A stretch of 64,000 bases of DNA from an uncultured Puniceicoccaceae bacterium. Its GTDB lineage: Bacteria; Verrucomicrobiota; Verrucomicrobiia; Opitutales; Oceanipulchritudinaceae. The stretch is taken from the NCBI GenBank assembly GCA_963933835.1, contig CAWVVV010000001.1:352001-416000 (forward strand). The letters run 5' to 3'. Shown piece by piece: positions 29,780 through 64,000 of the stretch (position 1 is its first letter; each line of letters starts with the position of its first letter). Under the pieces are notes generated by a model. It had not been told where the DNA came from and searched no databases. It was given only the letters and a program-made list of their open reading frames with translations. The translations under genes were made by a program, and so were the position numbers.

Positions 29780-30526
29780 ATGAAACGCCTGTCTATTACA
29801 CTGTCCCTTCTGGCTATAGCCGTTGGCCCGATTGCCGCCCAACCTATCGTCACCTCTTGGCAAGCCGAACACTCCGGCCGCTACGCTCGAATTTACGAGA
29901 CCACGGCAGCAGAGTCAGCAAGCCAATCCGTCACTACATGGTCACGGGGTGAGGGCATTCAAGACCAGCCGACCTACGCCGGTGTGAACGAAGTCTCCGT
30001 CAGCGCTACGCACGTCTACATTCGCACGAGTGGTCTCGGTTACCATGTCATGGGCCCTTGGTATGGAAACGAAGCCAAAACAAACCTCTTCGTTAATTAC
30101 CCAGCAAACCAAGCAGTCATCTACGCGCTTCCTCTCGACCCTGGCAGCATTCCATCGACCAAGAGCGGCACTGGACTCGGTGCCATCGGCTATTTCGTCG
30201 ACGGTATCGCGATGTTCGATTCCCGAGACGCCTTCTCATACTCGACCTCAAGTGCAACCGATGCCCGGCCCAATAACGGAGTTCAAGGCGACGGGTCTGG
30301 AATCGCGATGCATACGTCAACGAGAACGTCACCTTCGACCCCGCCAACGCGCACCAAGCGAGATCCAACCACCACTACCACGCTAACCCCCCCCCCCGCC
30401 TTGCGTCACCTCCTTGGCGATGCCGTTGCCTACGACTCTGCCACTAGTCGCTACACCGAACAAACTGGCGGAAATGGTATCCATTCATTTCCAGAGCCAA
30501 AGCCATCCGTGTCCATCCGTGGTTAA
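29780..30526 (+). pseudogene. Secreted YHYH-domain protein with two compensating frameshifts and a 3' truncation
   Basis: Signal peptide, GLGAIGYFVDGIAMFD; alternative frame from ~30293 reads WNRDAYVNENVTFDPANAHQARSNHHYHANP; frame restored at the C11 run 30387-30397; homology stops after GIHS (~30490). Confidence 0.8.
30505..30526 (+). repeat. Solo ATCCGTG decamer-repeat element end
   Basis: atccgtgtcc atccgtggttaa, near-identical to the GxxExxY cassette terminal repeat. Confidence 0.85.
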
Positions 30527-51498: not shown

Positions 51499-51834
51499 AT
51501 GGAACGAGACTCGGAACAACTGGCGCGCGAGCTGTGGACGATTGGAGACGATAACCGCCTCCGCTTGCTCGCAATGCTACCGACCGAGCCTGGCTGCGAA
51601 AACCACCGCAATGTCTCTGAACTCGCGGCGGAGCTTGGTCTCAGTCAGCCAACGGTGAGCAACCACCTCGCCCGCCTCCGCACCCTCGGCATCGTCAAAT
51701 GCCGCAAAATGTGCCGCGACGTCCATTACTGGATCGATCAAGAAATGGCCGCCGAGATCATCACTGCCTTAGCAATCAGCCTGAAGACCAGCGATGTGCT
51801 CCAGAAGAGCGAAGCCGTCGAGACAGGGAAGTGA
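51499..51834 (+). CDS. ArsR/SmtB family transcriptional regulator
   Basis: DNRLRLL, NVSELAAELGLSQPTVSNHLARLRTLGIV. Confidence 0.9.
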   Translation: MERDSEQLARELWTIGDDNRLRLLAMLPTEPGCENHRNVSELAAELGLSQPTVSNHLARLRTLGIVKCRKMCRDVHYWIDQEMAAEIITALAISLKTSDVLQKSEAVETGK

Positions 51835-51841
51835 CGACTGC

Positions 51842-52220
51842 GGACCGCGGGGACGCGGTCCCTCCAAAACAACGATGCCTGCCAGCCCTTCCCTGGAGGA
51901 ACCGGCTCTCATCAGTCCGTATTGCCGACCCATTACCCTTTTCCTGGAGGGACCAGCTCCTGCTGGTCCGCAACCGCGCACGCTCCGGATCTACAGCGGA
52001 CGGGCGGAGCCCATCCCTCCAAAACGTCAAATGACCGTCGCTAACCTCTCTGGAGGGACCAGCTCCGCTGGTCCGCAACGCGTATACCTTGGATCTCCTG
52101 TGGACGGGCAGGAGCCCATCCCTCCAAAAATACCTGCTGACTCCCCTCTCTGGAGGGACCAGCTCCTGCTGGTCCGCAACCGCGGACGCCGCCACAGACC
52201 GGCAGGAGCAGGTCCCTCCA
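51842..52220. repeat. Array of eight 24-25-bp REP-like palindromes (TGGAGGGA-stem-loop-GTCC)
   Basis: Units at 51842-66(-), 51894-918(+), 51945-69(+), 51998-52021(-), 52051-74(+), 52102-26(-), 52151-75(+), 52196-220(-). Confidence 0.9.
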
Positions 52221-52253
52221 AGGTAGGTTGTATTCTAGAAACGTGTAGCCCGC

Positions 52254-57106: not shown

Positions 57107-57424
57107 TTATCTGGACTCACGTGGGTTCGAATCAGAGCTCTTCGGCTGGTAACGAATCTTTTTCACAAAGACCCACATACCGTAGTAAATAATAGCAGTC
57201 CCCGTTGAAAGCCCGGCACTCGCGAGGTGAGACAAAACATAAGAGCCCGATACCGTCAGTGCGAAATAAAACACGAAACTTACAATACCAAAAATTATAC
57301 CAAATTTGATGACAGAATATTCATGGCCCTTTGAGCGCTGCATCGTGGCAATGACCATTAGGACCAGAAATACCAATCCGACTAAGTCAGCAATAAGAGC
57401 TAGTATTGAGATCCCTGAATACAT
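57107..57424 (-). CDS. Small 3-TM hypothetical membrane protein
   Basis: Three hydrophobic segments; AT-rich. Confidence 0.55.
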   Translation of the reverse strand: MYSGISILALIADLVGLVFLVLMVIATMQRSKGHEYSVIKFGIIFGIVSFVFYFALTVSGSYVLSHLASAGLSTGTAIIYYGMWVFVKKIRYQPKSSDSNPRESR

Positions 57425-57450
57425 CGGTGCTTATGCGTGATTAAAAAAAG

Positions 57451-58320
57451 CTACACCCCAATCGGGTGCCAGGTGGTCTTGTATTCGATAAAGTCTTTGA
57501 TCGCGTAGAGTGAAGGCGGCGCTTCGGCCAACCATTGAGCGCGCGTTTTAGACGTGCGCACCTTCAAGCGCTTCATGCTCTCGGCGGCATAGATTTGAGC
57601 CTGCTTCGCTGCTTCACTCTCAACCGTAAGATCAAGCCCGCGCACATGCTCGTGGGTCGTCATTGTTTCGAGAAGCTCGTCGGCTGAACCACTGAGAAGG
57701 TTTACGACACCACCCGGCAGATCAGAGGTCGCGAGCATTTCTCCAAGGAGGATGGCAGGATAAGGATTCTTCTCCGAAGCCAACGCGATAATGGCGTTGC
57801 CCGATGTAATGACTGGAGCGACCTGCAAGATGAGCCCGAGCAGTGACGCCTCTGCTGGAGCAATGGCGCAAACCACGCCCATCGGCTCAGTGACGGTAAA
57901 GTTAAAAAACAGCCCAGAGACAGGGTTGGTGTTACCTAGCACTTGCGCATACTTATCCGTCCATCCCGCGCAGTGCACGAGGCTATCGATCGCTGCACTC
58001 ACTTCGACCTCAGCCTGCTTGGCAGTCACTCCGCCAGTGAGGCGCACCGCCCCAACAAGCTCTTCGGCACGTGCTTCCATCATCTCTGCCAGACGATATA
58101 AAATCTGCCCGCGATTGTAGGCCGTCCGAGCGGCCCACGCGCCGCCAGCCTTCGCCGCGACTTCGACCGCGTTGCGCACATCCTTGCGCGAACAAACGGG
58201 CACATTGCAGATAAACTCCCCAGAAGCATCTTCGAGCGCACGAACACGTCCACTCTCGGAGCGTATGAACTTTCCGCCTACATAGGCTTTAGGGGTCTTG
58301 GTGATAGGTAAACGAGTCAT
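57451..58320 (-). CDS. Short aldehyde-dehydrogenase-fold protein lacking the catalytic domain
   Basis: GGKFIRSESGR, YNRGQILYRLAEM, TSDLPGGVVNLL, KTTWHP; no ELGG or catalytic Cys region. Confidence 0.85.
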   Translation of the reverse strand: MTRLPITKTPKAYVGGKFIRSESGRVRALEDASGEFICNVPVCSRKDVRNAVEVAAKAGGAWAARTAYNRGQILYRLAEMMEARAEELVGAVRLTGGVTAKQAEVEVSAAIDSLVHCAGWTDKYAQVLGNTNPVSGLFFNFTVTEPMGVVCAIAPAEASLLGLILQVAPVITSGNAIIALASEKNPYPAILLGEMLATSDLPGGVVNLLSGSADELLETMTTHEHVRGLDLTVESEAAKQAQIYAAESMKRLKVRTSKTRAQWLAEAPPSLYAIKDFIEYKTTWHPIGV

Positions 58321-58338
58321 GATATATACATTAAAGGG

Positions 58339-58758
58339 TTAACCACGGATGGACACAGATTCTAGAACTCCTAGGACGACGCGTTTCCACTGCCGTTTAG
58401 GATGCTTAAAATTGAGGATGAGACCAATCTTGAGCTTTGTAATGCGAAGGTAGTTCATCATTTGACCAACTTCATTATCACCGATTGGGTCGATGACTTT
58501 AGTATCTACGACGACTGTATTCTCAATAATCAGATCAGGAATAAAAAGCCCAACAGAACTTCCCTTATAGCTGATTTCGTATTGATTTTGCTGGGCAACA
58601 TCTAAAGCGCGCAGACCTAACTCAATAACCAAAGCGTTCTCGTAAGGCTTCTCGTGAAGCCCATGACCCAATCCATTCAAAACATCGAACGCAGACCCAA
58701 TAACATCTTTAGTCAGCGTTTCATGCTGTAGTAAAGATCCGTGTGTATCCGTGTTCAT
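58339..58758 (-). CDS. GxxExxY family protein (PD-(D/E)XK nuclease fold)
   Basis: GLHEKPY (GxxExxY), IPDLIIENTVVVDTK (PD...DxK), QMMNYL, GLILNF. Confidence 0.92.
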   Translation of the reverse strand: MNTDTHGSLLQHETLTKDVIGSAFDVLNGLGHGLHEKPYENALVIELGLRALDVAQQNQYEISYKGSSVGLFIPDLIIENTVVVDTKVIDPIGDNEVGQMMNYLRITKLKIGLILNFKHPKRQWKRVVLGVLESVSIRG

Positions 58759-58768
58759 CCGTGGTTAA
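58339..58768. mobile_element. Putative mobile cassette: GxxExxY gene between 22-bp inverted repeats
   Basis: Left 58339-58360 TTAACCACGGATGGACACAGAT; right 58747-58768 reverse-complements to TTAACCACGGATGAACACGGAT (20/22 match); extra decamer at 58737-58746. Confidence 0.6.
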
Positions 58769-58780
58769 AGGTTTTTAAGC

Positions 58781-60277
58781 TTATAAAATCTTCAGGTAGT
58801 CAGCGACGCCCTGCTTGCCGCCTTCGCGCCCGAAGCCACTGGATTTGTATCCACCGAACGGTGACGTCGGATCGAATTTGTTGTAGGTATTGGCCCATAC
58901 GACACCCGCTTTAAGCGCGGTGCTCATCTTGAGGATTTTTGAGCCCTTATCTGTCCAGACACCAGCAGAGAGACCGTAAGCCGTATTGTTCGCCTTTTCG
59001 ATCGCTTCACTGACGGTGCGGAAAGTGAGAACACTGAGAACAGGCCCAAAGATTTCTTCGCGGGCGACACGGTGACTTTGAGTGACACCGGTGAACAGTG
59101 TCGGGCGGAAAAACCAGCCCGTCTTTGGCAAGGCGCATGAGCTTTGATACATCTCGGCACCTTCCTTAACGCCCGATTTTACGAGTTCGGTGATTTTCTT
59201 AAACTGCTCTTCAGAATTAATCGCTCCGATGTCGGTGTTCTTATCGAGCGGATTCCCCACACGCAGCGTAGCGATGCGTTGCTTTAGCTTTTTGATGACT
59301 ACATCAGCAACCGACTCCTGCACTAGCAATCGACTACCCGCGCAGCAAACATGCCCTTGGTTGAAAAAGATCCCATTTATAATGCCTTCAACTGCTTGAT
59401 CCAGTGGGGCATCATCAAAGACGATATTGGCAGCCTTGCCGCCGAGTTCGAGGGTCAGCCCCTTACCTGTGCCAGCGACCGACCTCATAATCGCCTGACC
59501 AACCGCCGTAGATCCAGTGAAAGCGATCTTCTTCGCGGTCGGGTGGTTGGCGATCATCTCGCCTGTTGCACCGGCACCAGTGACGATATTGACGACGCCC
59601 GGAGGCAGGCCGGCATCGCGAAAGATTTCGGCCATCTTCAGCGCCGTGATCGAAGTCGTCTCCGCAGGCTTAAGAACCACGCAATTCCCAGTCGCCAACG
59701 CCGGGGCGATTTTCCACGCGAGCATGAGGAGCGGAAAGTTCCACGGGATGATCTGCCCAACCACACCATAGGGCTCGGTCTTCGCACCGGGCACAGCATA
59801 CTCGAGCTTGTCCGCCCAACCGGCGTAATAGAAAAAGTGGGCCGCAGCCATCGGCAGATCGAAATCGCGGGACTCCTTGATCGGCTTACCTCCATCCATC
59901 GTCTCCGCGACAGCGAGCTCGCGCGAACGATCCTGAATGAGTCGCGCGATACGGTAGAGGTATTTGCCGCGTTCTTTGCCCGACATGTCTCGCCAGACAG
60001 AGTGGTAGGCTTTGTCCGCGGCTTTGAAAGCAGCATCTATATCACTTTTCCCTGCGGCTGAAATCTTTGCCAGAACCTTACCTGTCGCAGGGTTGATCGA
60101 ATCAAAATACTTCCGGCTCTTCGGTGCAACGAATTGGCCGCCGATAAAGAGATCGTATTTATCTTTGATCGCTGGCTTAGCTGATTCCGGGGCTGGATCA
60201 AACTCCCAAAGGTCTCCGAAAAGAAGTTCAGGGGTAGCACGGCGGCGAGAAGATGAAGTTGTTTTTGTCTTAGCCAT
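58781..60277 (-). CDS. Aldehyde dehydrogenase
   Basis: IIPWNFP, LKPAE, FTGST, LELGGK, FNQGHVCCAGSR, EEIFGP, PFGGYKSSGFGRE. Confidence 0.95.
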   Translation of the reverse strand: MAKTKTTSSSRRRATPELLFGDLWEFDPAPESAKPAIKDKYDLFIGGQFVAPKSRKYFDSINPATGKVLAKISAAGKSDIDAAFKAADKAYHSVWRDMSGKERGKYLYRIARLIQDRSRELAVAETMDGGKPIKESRDFDLPMAAAHFFYYAGWADKLEYAVPGAKTEPYGVVGQIIPWNFPLLMLAWKIAPALATGNCVVLKPAETTSITALKMAEIFRDAGLPPGVVNIVTGAGATGEMIANHPTAKKIAFTGSTAVGQAIMRSVAGTGKGLTLELGGKAANIVFDDAPLDQAVEGIINGIFFNQGHVCCAGSRLLVQESVADVVIKKLKQRIATLRVGNPLDKNTDIGAINSEEQFKKITELVKSGVKEGAEMYQSSCALPKTGWFFRPTLFTGVTQSHRVAREEIFGPVLSVLTFRTVSEAIEKANNTAYGLSAGVWTDKGSKILKMSTALKAGVVWANTYNKFDPTSPFGGYKSSGFGREGGKQGVADYLKIL

Positions 60278-61221
60278 TAGTATCCAGAAGTTGCGTCACT
60301 AAAGTTCCACGGAGCTTGATAGACTCCAGTTTCCTGCTTGCGAAGCTGCATGAGTAAGTCGTTCAAAAGTGAACTCGCGCCAAATCGGTAGCGTGTATTG
60401 CTGAGCCACGCATCCCCCAGCGTCTCTTTCACTGCGACCAGAAACTGGAGCGCTTGTTTCGAATTTCGAATCCCACCGGCAGGCTTCATGCTAATCGAGG
60501 TGCCTGTATCCAAATAATGATCACGGATCGCTTCGAGCATGACCTGATTGTTAGCCAAGGTGGCATTGCCTGAAGTTTTTCCTGTGCTCGTCTTGATGAA
60601 GTCGCCCTCTCGAAGCACTTCCATCGCGAGGAAAGAAGCGAGGCGGATCTTGTCGTAGGTTTCGAGTTCACTCACTTCGAGAATCACCTTCAAAGTCGTT
60701 TCGCCACCCGCATCGCGGACAGCCTCTATCTCATCCTGAACCTTCTGATACTTGCCTTCATGGAAGAGCCCGCGACTGATCACCATGTCAATTTCGTCGG
60801 CACCGTCTTTCACGGCTTGCTTTACCTCAGCCAACCGCGTCCGCAGAGGTGTTTGACCAGAGGGGAAAGCTGTTGCCACCGAGGCGATATGAACCGCATG
60901 CCCCTCGCCGAGAAAGGCGCGAGCGGCTTTGACCATCGCGGGATAGACGCAAACCGCCGCCGTCGTGGGTGTATCAAAGGTCGAATCCGGACAAATCGCC
61001 TTGCGGCAGAGTGACTCGACTTTACCCGCCGTATCCATGCCCTCGAGCGTCGTCAGGTCGACCATTGAGACGGCCAGTTTGAGGCCCTGCACTTTGCTGG
61101 CTTTCTTAATACTGCGCGTGGTGTATTTCGCCACACGTTCCTCAATCGCCACTTTATCTACTGGACCATACGTATCGAGGAGCCTCCGCATGGATTTGGG
61201 CTTGGGTGCTGTAGGGGGCAT
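60277..61221 (-). CDS. deoC: Deoxyribose-phosphate aldolase
   Basis: VDLTTLEG, AAVCVYP, GADEIDMVI, LKVILE, DFIKTSTGK, KPAGGIR, RFGASSLL. Confidence 0.95.
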   Translation of the reverse strand: MPPTAPKPKSMRRLLDTYGPVDKVAIEERVAKYTTRSIKKASKVQGLKLAVSMVDLTTLEGMDTAGKVESLCRKAICPDSTFDTPTTAAVCVYPAMVKAARAFLGEGHAVHIASVATAFPSGQTPLRTRLAEVKQAVKDGADEIDMVISRGLFHEGKYQKVQDEIEAVRDAGGETTLKVILEVSELETYDKIRLASFLAMEVLREGDFIKTSTGKTSGNATLANNQVMLEAIRDHYLDTGTSISMKPAGGIRNSKQALQFLVAVKETLGDAWLSNTRYRFGASSLLNDLLMQLRKQETGVYQAPWNFSDATSGY

Positions 61222-61267
61222 GCGGAAAAAATCACACTATCCGGCGCCCATTACAATGCGTATGTTG

Positions 61268-61882
61268 CTAAACTAAACCCGCCTTAGCGGCGAAGGGATC
61301 CCAGGTAGGGTCGCGGTGTCAGTCATACTCGGCGGCCAGAGCGACCGCTTCGGCCTGCTCAGAACCAAACTTTTTCTCGATCAAGGTGAGCGTCATATCC
61401 ATTCCGGCAGAGACACCTGCCGAGGTTATGAATTTCCCATCCGCTACCCAGCGCGCTTGCGGAATCCACTCGGTCTTTGGCCCCTGACTACACGCTCACT
61501 CAAATGCCATCTTATTGGAGGTTGCCTGCTTGCCGTCGAGGGCCCCCGTTGCGGCAAGAATGCCTGCACCGGTACAGATAGAGGCCACCGTTGGCGTCCG
61601 CTCAATCACATCGGTGAGCAATGCCATTAAGGCATCCTCCTCTACAACCGATCGCGTGCCGATGCCTCCCGGTATCATCAAAACATCCACTGGGGGTAGC
61701 TCCGAAAGCGCAACCGTTGCCTCGACCCGTGTGCCAGCAATGCTTCGAACAAGCCCCCCCTCCGATGCCATCACCAAAACATCAATACGATCCCGTATGA
61801 TCGAGAACATCTCCAGCGGGCCAAAGACATCGAGCAGCTCGAAGCCATCAAATAGAAACATCGCGACGCTAATCTTTTTCAT
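61268..61882 (-). pseudogene. DJ-1/PfpI family protein with two in-frame TGA codons
   Basis: FELLDVFGPLE, IPGGIG, SICTGA; reading through TGA at 61496-98 and 61319-21 gives ARWVADGKFITSAGVSAGMDM...EYD*HRDPTWDPFA to TAG at 61268. Confidence 0.85.
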
Positions 61883-61904
61883 CGCTCGTGAGCTTTAGTC
61901 GCGA

Positions 61905-62948
61905 TCAGTCCAGCGTCCAGTTCGGATCGAAACCGAGCTGGTAATCTTCGCAGGTCTTCACCCCCGCAGGGTCCATCCAAGCGGCAAAAGCAATCATCGC
62001 AGCATTGTCCCCGGTGTGGTGCCGCTCGGCTAAATAGACAGGCATTTCGTGGGTTTCACCGAGCGCACTGATACCTTCGCGTAAGCGAGCGTTGTTGGCT
62101 ACCCCTCCGGAGAGGCCGAGGCTACGCCAGCGTCCAGGATTCCGCCGGATGATCTGCCGAGTCTTTCCAATCAGAGCACCCACGACCGCTTCTTCATAGC
62201 TAGCGCAGAGGTCAGGCATGGTTGCTTCCAGATCGGCGGGAGCAATTTTCTCGATCGTGTAGCGCAGCGCTGTTTTCAGACCTGAGAAGGAAAATTTGCG
62301 CTCGCCCGAATTCATAAATGCACGGGGAAAATCAAACCGATCGCGCGCGCCACCCGCGCCGAGCTTTTCGATCAGCGGGCCACCAGGATATGGCATGCCA
62401 AGAAGCTTTGCACCTTTATCGAGGGCCTCGCCGGCAGCGTCATCAACCGTTTCAGCGATGACCCTGAGCGAGCGGTCAGCATCGATTTCAAAGAGGATCG
62501 TATTCCCCCCCGAGACAATCAAGCCGAGGTGTGGGAGGGATCCTTCGAAATTTTGTTCAAACGCCTCCGGTGCCTCGCCATGCATCGAAATAAACGGCGA
62601 CCAGACATGCCCCCGAAGATGATTTACGCCAACGAGCGGGCGATCCCACGCAACGGCCAGCGCCTTTGCCAGAGCCATCCCGAGCGCTAGGCAGCCCGCC
62701 AACCCCGGCCCGGCAGTGACGGCTAAGCGATCAGGAACGTCATCACCGACTTGATCCAATACCGTGCTCAGCAAGCCTGGGAAGTGCGCCAGATGCTCGC
62801 GACTTGCGACATCCGGCACGATGCCTCCGAAGGGCTGGTGTTTGTCGATCTGCGAGTGGACCCATTCACCCCTCAGCCCCACTTTCGGGTCGAAGAGTGC
62901 TAAAGCAGATTCATCGCAGGAACTTTCGATCGCCAGCCACACGCTCAC
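61905..62948 (-). CDS. tsaD: tRNA N6-adenosine threonylcarbamoyltransferase
   Basis: [55 protein letters not shown]. Confidence 0.95.
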
Positions 62949-63026
62949 AAGAGAGAGGGGAATTCAGCCTATGGAAATAAAAAAGACGCTTTCCCCACTC
63001 CGATCTATCGCCCTACTCTGTGTGTC

Positions 63027-63605
63027 ATGGCGAAGCTCTACTTCTACTACAGTGCAATGAACGCAGGGAAAACGACCGCACTTTTGCAGAGTGACTATAA
63101 TTACCGCGAGCGGGGCATGCACACTGTCCTCCTCACCCCCTCAATCGATGACCGCGAAACGATCGGTAAAATTCGCTCCCGGATCGGCTTAGAAGCGGAC
63201 GCCACACCCTACGACGCGCAGACCGACATGAAGGCCTTCGTCAAAACGACCCATGACTCCAAGCCCGTCGATTGCGTCCTCGTCGACGAGGCCCAGTTTC
63301 TGACCAAGCAGCAGGTCCTTGAGCTCACTGATCTCGCTGACTTTCACGATATCCCTGTCCTCTGCTACGGCCTGCGGACCGACTTTCGCGGCGAACTCTT
63401 CGAAGGGAGCAACTACCTGCTCGCATGGGCCGACGACATCAAAGAAATCAAGACGATGTGCCCTTCCGGTCGCAAAGCTACGATGGTTCTGCGCGTCGAC
63501 CAGGAGGGCAATGTCCTGCGCGAAGGCTCCCAAATCGAGATCGGCGGCAACGAACGTTATATCTCTGTCTCTCGCCGTTTCTTCAAAGAAGGACGCATAG
63601 AGTAA
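63027..63605 (+). CDS. tdk: Thymidine kinase
   Basis: [41 protein letters not shown]. Confidence 0.96.
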
Positions 63606-63684
63606 CTGTTTTGGAACCACAAAAGGCCCACAAAGCCTTCATGATTCCTAAGCCAACTTCTGCTCAGATCTGCATCGCGCGAGT

Positions 63685-63766
63685 ATCCGTGATTTTCCGT
63701 GTGCATCCGTGGTTAATTTAATCCCGAGCACGCGCACCATACATTATTCATCATTCACAATTCATC
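63685..63766 (+). repeat. Decamer element end (3 units) followed by a heptamer tract
   Basis: 63685-63716 atccgtgatt ttccgtgtgc atccgtggttaa; 63746-63766 attcatc attcaca attcatc. Confidence 0.8.
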
Positions 63767-63802
63767 CTTTCCCTTACTCACTCCCCCACCTAGCTTCCCA
63801 CC

Positions 63803-64000
63803 ATGCTCGAAAACCTGACTGATCGGCTCGGAAAAGCCCTCCGCAATCTCCGTGGAGTTGGCAAGCTGACTGAAGAAAACATGGCCGAAAGCCTGCAGGA
63901 AGTGCGTAAAGCGCTCCTCGCCGCCGACGTCCATTTTCGGGTCGCACGTGACTTCATCGAACGGGTCAAAACCGCCGCCGAAGGCCAAGACGTGCTCAAG
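63803..64000 (+). CDS. ffh: Signal recognition particle protein, 5' part (runs off the window; absent from the ORF track)
   Basis: Manual translation [56 protein letters not shown]. Confidence 0.92.

Follow-up and report, generated by a model that had tools for sequence, protein, structure and literature searches.

A GxxExxY gene packaged between its own inverted repeats: a candidate repeat/nuclease system resembling REPIN/RAYT

Introduction

In the 64,000-nucleotide stretch of an uncultured Puniceicoccaceae genome analysed here (the window), a short gene of the GxxExxY family lies between two inverted repeat arms within an operon, which raises the question of what kind of unit it is: a young selfish element, a resident repeat system with an enzyme of its own, or something that serves the host. 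A first-pass annotation, made from the letters alone, had proposed a selfish nuclease-plus-repeat element analogous to RAYT/REP. PF13366, one of the two profiles that the protein matches, is tabulated as a family of unknown function with multiple transfers in PMC3424549, whose passages on this family are silent on flanking repeats, and in the accessible text of PMC8934634 the name GxxExxY appears a single time, applied to a gene labelled cas4 by another tool. A literature search confined to main texts and to a minority of subscription papers found no paper tying GxxExxY or PF13366 to repeats. Tandem inverted repeats have reportedly been described beside genes for four-helix-bundle proteins.

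Results and Discussion

The cassette fills an operon spacer behind a stop codon

The unit and its surroundings comprise the following features (window coordinates).

58339..58768, minus strand: cassette of arm, GxxExxY gene and arm, filling the ALDH1/ALDH2 spacer
58737..58768, minus strand: upstream arm of three CAC-N-GAT ('G-type') decamers, holding the start codon and starting 12 nt past the ALDH1 stop
58339..58360, plus strand: downstream arm of two decamers, with a decayed third at ~58361-58370 and the ORF stop inside
58339..58758, minus strand: GxxExxY protein gene, 139 aa, predicted PD-(D/E)XK fold
58711..58713, minus strand: codon of Thr16, the helix-1 residue tracking arm base 8
58781..60277, minus strand: ALDH1, aldehyde dehydrogenase, host gene upstream of the cassette
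57451..58320, minus strand: ALDH2, short aldehyde-dehydrogenase-family gene, host gene downstream of the cassette
60277..61221, minus strand: deoC aldolase, first gene of the operon
63615..63716, no strand: gene-less mixed doublet after the thymidine kinase gene, pairing a three-decamer G-type arm with an opposed arm of another word type
30505..30526, minus strand: gene-less G-type arm
57423..57444, minus strand: degenerate arm just past the ALDH2 stop codon, a weak match found by eye

The 22-nt sequences at 58339-58360 and 58747-58768 are complementary at 20 of 22 positions (91%), with TTAA at both ends, and a third decamer extends the upstream arm to 58737; coordinates and alignment bear out the 430-bp unit with 22-bp arms that was first described. 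The operon order deoC-ALDH1-GxxExxY-ALDH2, with the GxxExxY gene co-oriented, and its GC content of 0.43 against 0.57 and 0.54 in the flanking ALDH genes likewise agree with the first-pass annotation of an AT-richer gene lying in line with its neighbours. Both ends of the protein had further been taken for translated repeat. The ATG does lie within one arm and the TAA within the other, and an in-frame ATG in the upstream arm is usual (70 of 77 homologous loci); read-through at the other end is not general, the ORF stop falling in or past the downstream arm at only 3 of 77 loci, the window copy among them, and the C-terminal translated repeat is therefore incidental. Homologous cassettes measure a median of 435 bp from arm to arm, compared with 430 bp here, and empty orthologous spacers are short. 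Most cassettes (64/77) lie within 150 bp behind an ORF on the same strand, and 18 of these overlap its stop codon.

An Rfam scan of 57300-64000 and a PADLOC search each gave zero matches, and a promoter/terminator scan gave no signal above chance level. Elsewhere in the window, the intergenic stretch at 51800-52250 between ArsR-like and TonB-like genes is repetitive, with motifs recurring in overlapping spurious ORFs, and resembles another repeat cluster.

The protein has a predicted PD-(D/E)XK fold

The protein matches the TIGR04256 (GxxExxY) profile at 118 bits (cut-off 35) and PF13366 at 114 bits (cut-off 22). These were the sole matches in the Pfam and NCBIfam scan, which gave no DDE transposase, HUH or recombinase domain, in keeping with the initial claim that the unit carries no such gene. 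An alignment-based fold model reached pLDDT 86 (a single-sequence model only 36) and places helix 1 at residues 13-30. Its nearest folds are the Cas4 protein SSO0001 and lambda exonuclease, with middling scores (Foldseek E 9e-4; Z 8.0, rmsd 10.5, 104 aligned), and a sequence search of solved structures gave nothing significant. Among 89 sequences E36 and K87 never vary, and D75, Q99 and Y103 reach at least 90% conservation, with D85 occupying the D/E-x-K position. The restriction-like fold of the predicted model, combined with conserved acidic and lysine residues, is what defines a PD-(D/E)XK protein, and the PD-(D/E)XK-like motif first read from the letters (profile scores, E36, K87 and D75) holds up. 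The predicted fold gives no function, because Z values of 6-8 are common to many restriction-fold proteins. With the Cas4/RecB-like/lambda-exonuclease group (SSO0001, 4ic1), its best structural matches, the protein shares the D..D/ExK core and Q99..Y103, which we take to be the QxxxY motif, but it differs in being a 139-aa protein without Fe-S cysteines, with no cas genes nearby and with repeat arms on its flanks.

Inverted arms accompany GxxExxY genes in general

The host genome (1.94 Mb) holds seven GxxExxY genes, 25-52% identical to one another, and all 7/7 are flanked by inverted arms of their own, each with a different word (arm scores 15-27). The repeat period, judged by eye, varies from 8 to 10 among these paralogues, so strict helical phasing of the arms is not general. 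Beyond this genome, an inverted-repeat score of at least 12 was reached at 103 of 114 scored GxxExxY loci and at 2 of 101 control flanks taken 500 bp further out, and arms are present at 75 of 78 scorable close homologues (the best 80 of 228 homologue loci). A protein-core peptide pattern occurs in 80/80 of these homologue loci and a repeat-coded pattern in 0/80, and therefore sampling did not select for arms. Both arms could be aligned at 77 of 82 close loci, and this set of 77 was used for the arm statistics. Enrichment of inverted repeats on the flanks had been foreseen by the first-pass annotation, as had a partnership of nuclease and repeat analogous to RAYT/REP; the latter gains support from the 103 of 114 loci and from the co-variation of arm and protein described below.

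One paralogue of the host genome (L006, G000 C3:199029-199331) seems frameshifted near its N-terminus and has intact arms. A well-supported subgroup (L244, L254-L256, L265 and L267) has G-type arms with an apparent period of 9, not 10.

Gene-less arms are dispersed through host and related genomes

Arms also occur without a gene, scattered in the host and related genomes. The host genome has 23 G-type arrays (3 at GxxExxY genes, 20 intergenic) and 13 A-type arrays, compared with 0 and 2 in a reversed-sequence control, and its gene-less arms are often grouped in mosaic clusters. Two arm patterns were found in 109 and 124 of 401 genomes of the phylum, with up to 200 arms per genome. At least five arms are present in 67 of 74 genomes with a close homologue versus 39 of 327 without, and at least ten are still present in 26 of the 327 genomes without a GxxExxY match at E<=1e-30. 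The dominant dispersed type, counted without each cassette's own arms, tracks residue 16 of the protein (Ser/Thr, 16 G to 9 A; Val/Ala, 4 G to 21 A; p 0.0012, kinship among genomes inflating this as it does every genome-level p value). Short arm pairs (doublets) are extragenic, inverted, variable in their spacers and many per genome, as is typical of REPINs, and 17 of them from three arm-rich genomes have spacers that are all different, which fits the picture drawn for REPINs, of arms that stay conserved while turnover is slow.

Nested arm pairs, considered as a sign of insertion into doublets, were dropped as such at 1/77. One cassette (L139) is placed between two complete gene-less doublets. 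Outside the window, mosaic intergenic clusters at G000 C4:169900-177400, C3:15200-19050, C3:289600-291600 and C1:88400-88800 combine arm words of four or five types with further short conserved words, much as BIME mosaics do.

The cassette appears to be an old resident that rarely moves

Among the 78 homologues of the protein tree (a quick tree of the 80 close loci minus 2), 35 have the same ALDH1 orthologue immediately upstream and 2 have deoC there; others recur at a few other junctions. The tree clusters by site (16 changes vs 47 shuffled) and groups the window copy with three same-site copies (SH-aLRT 87). At the 35 same-site loci the ALDH1 and GxxExxY distances correlate (Mantel rho 0.43, p 0.0002), nearest neighbours in the two proteins agree in 15/35 cases vs 3 expected, and the median dN/dS is 0.16 (50 unsaturated same-site pairs). 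This pattern points to a gene held at one junction long-term under purifying selection.

When ALDH1 alone served as query, 37 of 301 genomes of the order proved to carry the orthologue. Inspected by eye, the junction at its 3' end is occupied by a close cassette in 6 of them (the host genome among these), by a distant GxxExxY cassette in 2, by a gene-less doublet in 2 and by other repeats in 6, and is empty in 21; at the deoC-ALDH1 junction of the same 37 genomes, also judged by eye, gene-less doublets are seen in 8 and a full cassette in 1. The empty sites that had been anticipated at related deoC-ALDH-ALDH loci are thus common. It had also been argued that a gene present at this position in all relatives with a vertical phylogeny would speak against mobility: partial co-phylogeny and the shared site (35/78) give that argument its vertical half, and the 21/37 empty junctions deny it universal presence. 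The ALDH1 of the window is sister to 10 loci, 10/10 of them empty, inside a larger, mostly filled clade in which filled loci are over-sampled. An ancestral cassette with loss in the sister clade would be the simplest reading, and a separate gain of the window cassette may be the alternative.

When copies from unrelated junctions are aligned, the DNA homology starts and stops precisely with the arms (L083/L126, 77% over 450 bp; L056/L114, 78% over 439 bp), and one genome (G578) carries 82%-identical paralogues at two junctions. Direct duplications of 3-8 bp were sought at the 77 filled sites and none was found. The cassette evidently moves, to judge from these alignments, though rarely and without target duplication; our search for near-identical filled/empty pairs found none and caught no movement event. 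In assembled contigs of 4 of 17 runs (X5, X8, X10, X12), no excision or empty-allele joint appeared among the joints listed, which is not evidence of stability since contigs drop rare variants; contig pieces of X5 and X10 span cassette junctions without differences. Two peptide patterns matched 4 loci in viruses.

Residence of this kind could mean that the unit serves its host. In a fully domesticated binding system, the protein would read the arms to serve the host, whether in autoregulation, in the processing of DNA or of transcripts at operon junctions, or in chromosome organisation, and the arms would spread by recombination or through another enzyme and not through this nuclease. Long residence, the dN/dS of 0.16 and the partial co-phylogeny favour this, as do the cassettes behind stop codons in operons (64/77) and the 17 doublets whose all-different spacers imply no clonal burst, and the residue/base code described below would fit equally well. 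It is harder to reconcile with an arm-to-arm unit at many unrelated junctions where homology ends at the arms, with a single junction that alternates between gene, doublet, other repeats and empty, with the conservation of likely catalytic residues and with the patchy distribution of the gene (20 of 37 genomes of the taxonomic family), and we regard it as unlikely.

The first-pass annotation had instead leaned towards an active, selfish minimal element, recently inserted with a TTAA target duplication. The closest ALDH1 relatives are indeed empty (10/10 in the sister clade), the GC content is lower than that of the flanks, TTAA stands at both ends of the window copy and seven family members share a 1.9-Mb genome. 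Across the 77 loci, however, TTAA occurs at the left end in 23, at the right end in 39 and at both in 13, about the independence expectation, with no direct duplication, so the proposed target duplication fails. The site is occupied in 35/78 close homologues and the window copy clusters with same-site copies; there are no young copies, the paralogues being 25-52% identical; 9/10 pairs at 90% identity or more are same-site and the tenth has common flanks; and plasmids yield matches in only 7 of 72,556 records. We consider this reading very unlikely, and for the window copy it is largely refuted: by the comparisons above, that copy appears to be an old resident.

Several further features of these loci deserve mention. 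The ALDH1 3' junction in L181, L176, L177, L018, L019 and L021 holds a heptamer doublet, nonamer doublets or single tandem arrays of 6- or 7-mers, and L154 has a direct repeat of tens of bases on both sides, beyond the arms. Many relatives have a gene of ~470 aa resembling a peptide transporter between cassette and ALDH2. The window operon (57451-61221) is much nearer to that of families f36, f32 and f22 (ALDH1 71-84%; L038, L084, L096 and others) than to that of its own family, f1 (60-68%), which hints at either horizontal gain or paralogy. Several genome records whose titles name Klebsiella, Bifidobacteriaceae or Acidiferrales carry loci (L089, L093, L097, L127, L146 and others) that group with verrucomicrobial ones; these titles seem untrustworthy, and no case for inter-phylum transfer was built on them.

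Residue 16 of the protein tracks base 8 of the arms

In the discovery set, all 77/77 loci combine an A-type base 8 with Val16 (44) or Ala16 (1), or a G-type base 8 with Thr16 (27) or Ser16 (5). Out of sample, 65/69 callable A- or G-type loci among 115 further ones obey this rule, including 46/47 callable among the 53 closest, and in a second phylum 6/7 callable loci (10 sampled) do so. The exceptions are L243, L277, the frameshifted L006 and L266, which pairs Thr16 with A; Ser16 is ambiguous, being found also with A-type and other words (L243, L277, L327, L003 and L004). Co-variation of repeat and protein, another expectation of the first-pass annotation, here takes the form of a single residue and a single base.

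The mutual information with base 8 is 0.98, 0.90 and 0.03 for the first, second and third positions of codon 16, and at most 0.32 for residues 13-15, which are closer to the arm. Linkage is an unlikely cause of the match, because neither codon position 3 nor the nearer residues 13-15 track base 8. The far arm, 400 bp off, also tracks residue 16. Secondary peaks at residues 12, 17, 20 and 24 suggest one face of the modelled helix, and residues tracking arm bases 5 and 7 were sought without a clear signal. On the ALDH1 host tree (37 loci) both traits change 10 times. Among 72 disjoint closest pairs, which are not strictly independent, 12 change both traits according to the rule and 0 in the opposite sense, 1 changes the residue only and 2 the base only. 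Restricted to well-supported branches, the host tree gives 4/4 contrasts following the rule (p 0.125) and the protein tree 4 contrasts, of which 2 follow it, 0 oppose it and 2 are unchanged; such strict tree-based contrasts are too few for significance.

If the repeats were independent parasites, or were moved by another protein, GxxExxY would merely hitchhike and the residue/base match would reflect ancestry or linkage. Other repeat families at the same ALDH1 junction (6/37), arms in genomes without a close homologue and the scarcity of supported-branch contrasts speak for this; a synonymous position and nearer codons that do not track the base, a far arm that does, 12 concordant close pairs against 0 opposite ones and a rule kept in a second phylum speak against it and leave it hardly any credence. 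Recognition of the arm words by the protein is, on this co-variation, well supported, and the candidate recognition code linking residue 16 to base 8 is the new element of the present analysis. Valine and threonine differ by an isosteric swap of methyl for hydroxyl, which would fit the reading of A:T versus G:C in DNA.

A subgroup with Ile, Val or Thr16 (L252, L264, L266 and L269) has a shifted arm word of the CGT-T-AAT type and is a candidate for a second change of specificity.

Selection appears to act on the word and not on the stem

Within a cassette the two arms resemble each other more closely than do arms taken from different cassettes (26.5 vs 23.7 of 30; reached by 0/10,000 permutations), and base 8 is identical in both at 77/77 loci (0.51 expected). 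Linker bases barely co-vary between arms, decamer units match by word type and not by pairing partner, unit 3 being as good a match to the opposite unit 1 as unit 1 itself, and G-U pairs favour neither strand (cores, 22 vs 32; linkers, 42 vs 43). Selection would thus seem to act on the word and not on the stem, because units match by type instead of by partner and G-U pairs lack a strand bias. Least probable of all is an RNA-level element under selection for pairing, whose arms would form a long mRNA stem with the gene as its loop, on the model of intervening sequences in 23S rRNA: a predicted RNA fold of the cassette does bring the arms together as a pair, and the gene is co-oriented with its operon, but the linker columns, the behaviour of unit 3 and the G-U counts all speak against it.

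A candidate repeat/nuclease system of the REPIN/RAYT kind

We favour, with a probability of roughly 0.58, a repeat/nuclease system that resembles REPIN/RAYT, replicates slowly, is largely domesticated and employs an unrelated PD-(D/E)XK nuclease for its putative mobilisation. In such a system the cassette fills an operon spacer right after a stop codon and in the direction of transcription, and would be expressed through the host operon. The protein would then bind the word CAC-N-R-AT in its own arms and in dispersed doublets, residue 16 of helix 1 reading R, a step that the co-variation strongly supports. By general knowledge of base readout, Val, Ala or Ile16 would go with A, plausibly through the thymine methyl of the A:T pair, and Thr or Ser16 with G, plausibly through a hydrogen bond. 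We infer that cleavage and mobilisation are the work of the GxxExxY protein, whose conserved active site would nick or resect at the arms, host repair completing a rare duplication or relocation without target duplication. What is visible as a pattern is many gene-less doublets with unrelated spacers, and a gene that moves rarely, is long resident at a single junction under purifying selection and is lost or replaced by lineage. Counting against this reading, we know of no strand-joining activity in a lone PD-(D/E)XK nuclease.

More tentatively, and with less confidence than in the reading just given, GxxExxY proteins may in general be the mobilising enzymes of hitherto undescribed replicating repeats that span several phyla and need only a restriction-fold nuclease of ~130 aa plus host repair, with coexisting systems in one genome set apart by a few helix-1 residues, residue 16 being the first letter of a residue-to-base code. 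If true, this would assign a role and a testable substrate to a large family of proteins that is still catalogued as unknown, account for abundant intergenic repeats (each arm pattern occurring in over a quarter of the 401 genomes of the phylum, 109 and 124), and amount to a second, independent origin of the REPIN/RAYT lifestyle with different chemistry. The residue-16 rule makes the open question accessible to a one-mutation experiment. The literature that we searched held no description of a long-lived repeat-and-enzyme system of this kind.

How does the cassette compare with known systems? Insertion sequences and MITEs consist of a gene between terminal inverted repeats and of gene-less derivatives, and the GxxExxY cassette shares both features, but it lacks a DDE, HUH or recombinase domain as well as target duplication and near-identical copies, and its doublets have unrelated spacers. 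An IS or MITE was ruled out by the lack of target duplication (77 filled sites), of a DDE or recombinase gene and of near-identical copies at several sites. With PD-(D/E)XK homing endonucleases of the I-Ssp6803I type, an entry in PMC3424549, it has in common a small restriction-fold protein in a genetic insert; it differs in lacking an intron or intein, in occupying many unrelated sites instead of one cognate site, and in a recognition word that would lie in the element's own arms and not in the empty site. A homing endonuclease gene was ruled out by the many unrelated junctions and the lack of an Rfam match at 57300-64000.

The closest parallel is REPIN/RAYT, for which long residence at a single site, scarcity on plasmids and RAYTs that do not jump are described in the part of Bertels and Rainey (bioRxiv 10.1101/2021.07.10.451892) available to us. 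As far as that account goes, the two systems share inverted doublets that lie outside genes and vary in spacer, a dedicated gene for the enzyme, set between repeats of its own, and long single-site residence with plasmid scarcity and repeat conservation tied to the enzyme. By the same account they differ in the enzyme (PD-(D/E)XK here, an HUH/Y1 tyrosine transposase in RAYT), in the repeat (tandem 8-10-mers here, a short palindrome of ~14 bp in REP), in the several divergent GxxExxY paralogues per genome, each with its own word, and in the occasional relocation of a gene whose RAYT counterpart is described as not jumping. The GxxExxY system works like REPIN/RAYT but is not a member, because it has no HUH enzyme and no palindromic REP unit. 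Vertical inheritance of the RAYT kind shows partly in site-specific clades, a rho of 0.43 and a mere 7 plasmid records, yet relocation is evident; as to duplication of the repeats by the enzyme, what is seen is only the co-occurrence of arms and gene, in 67/74 versus 39/327 genomes.
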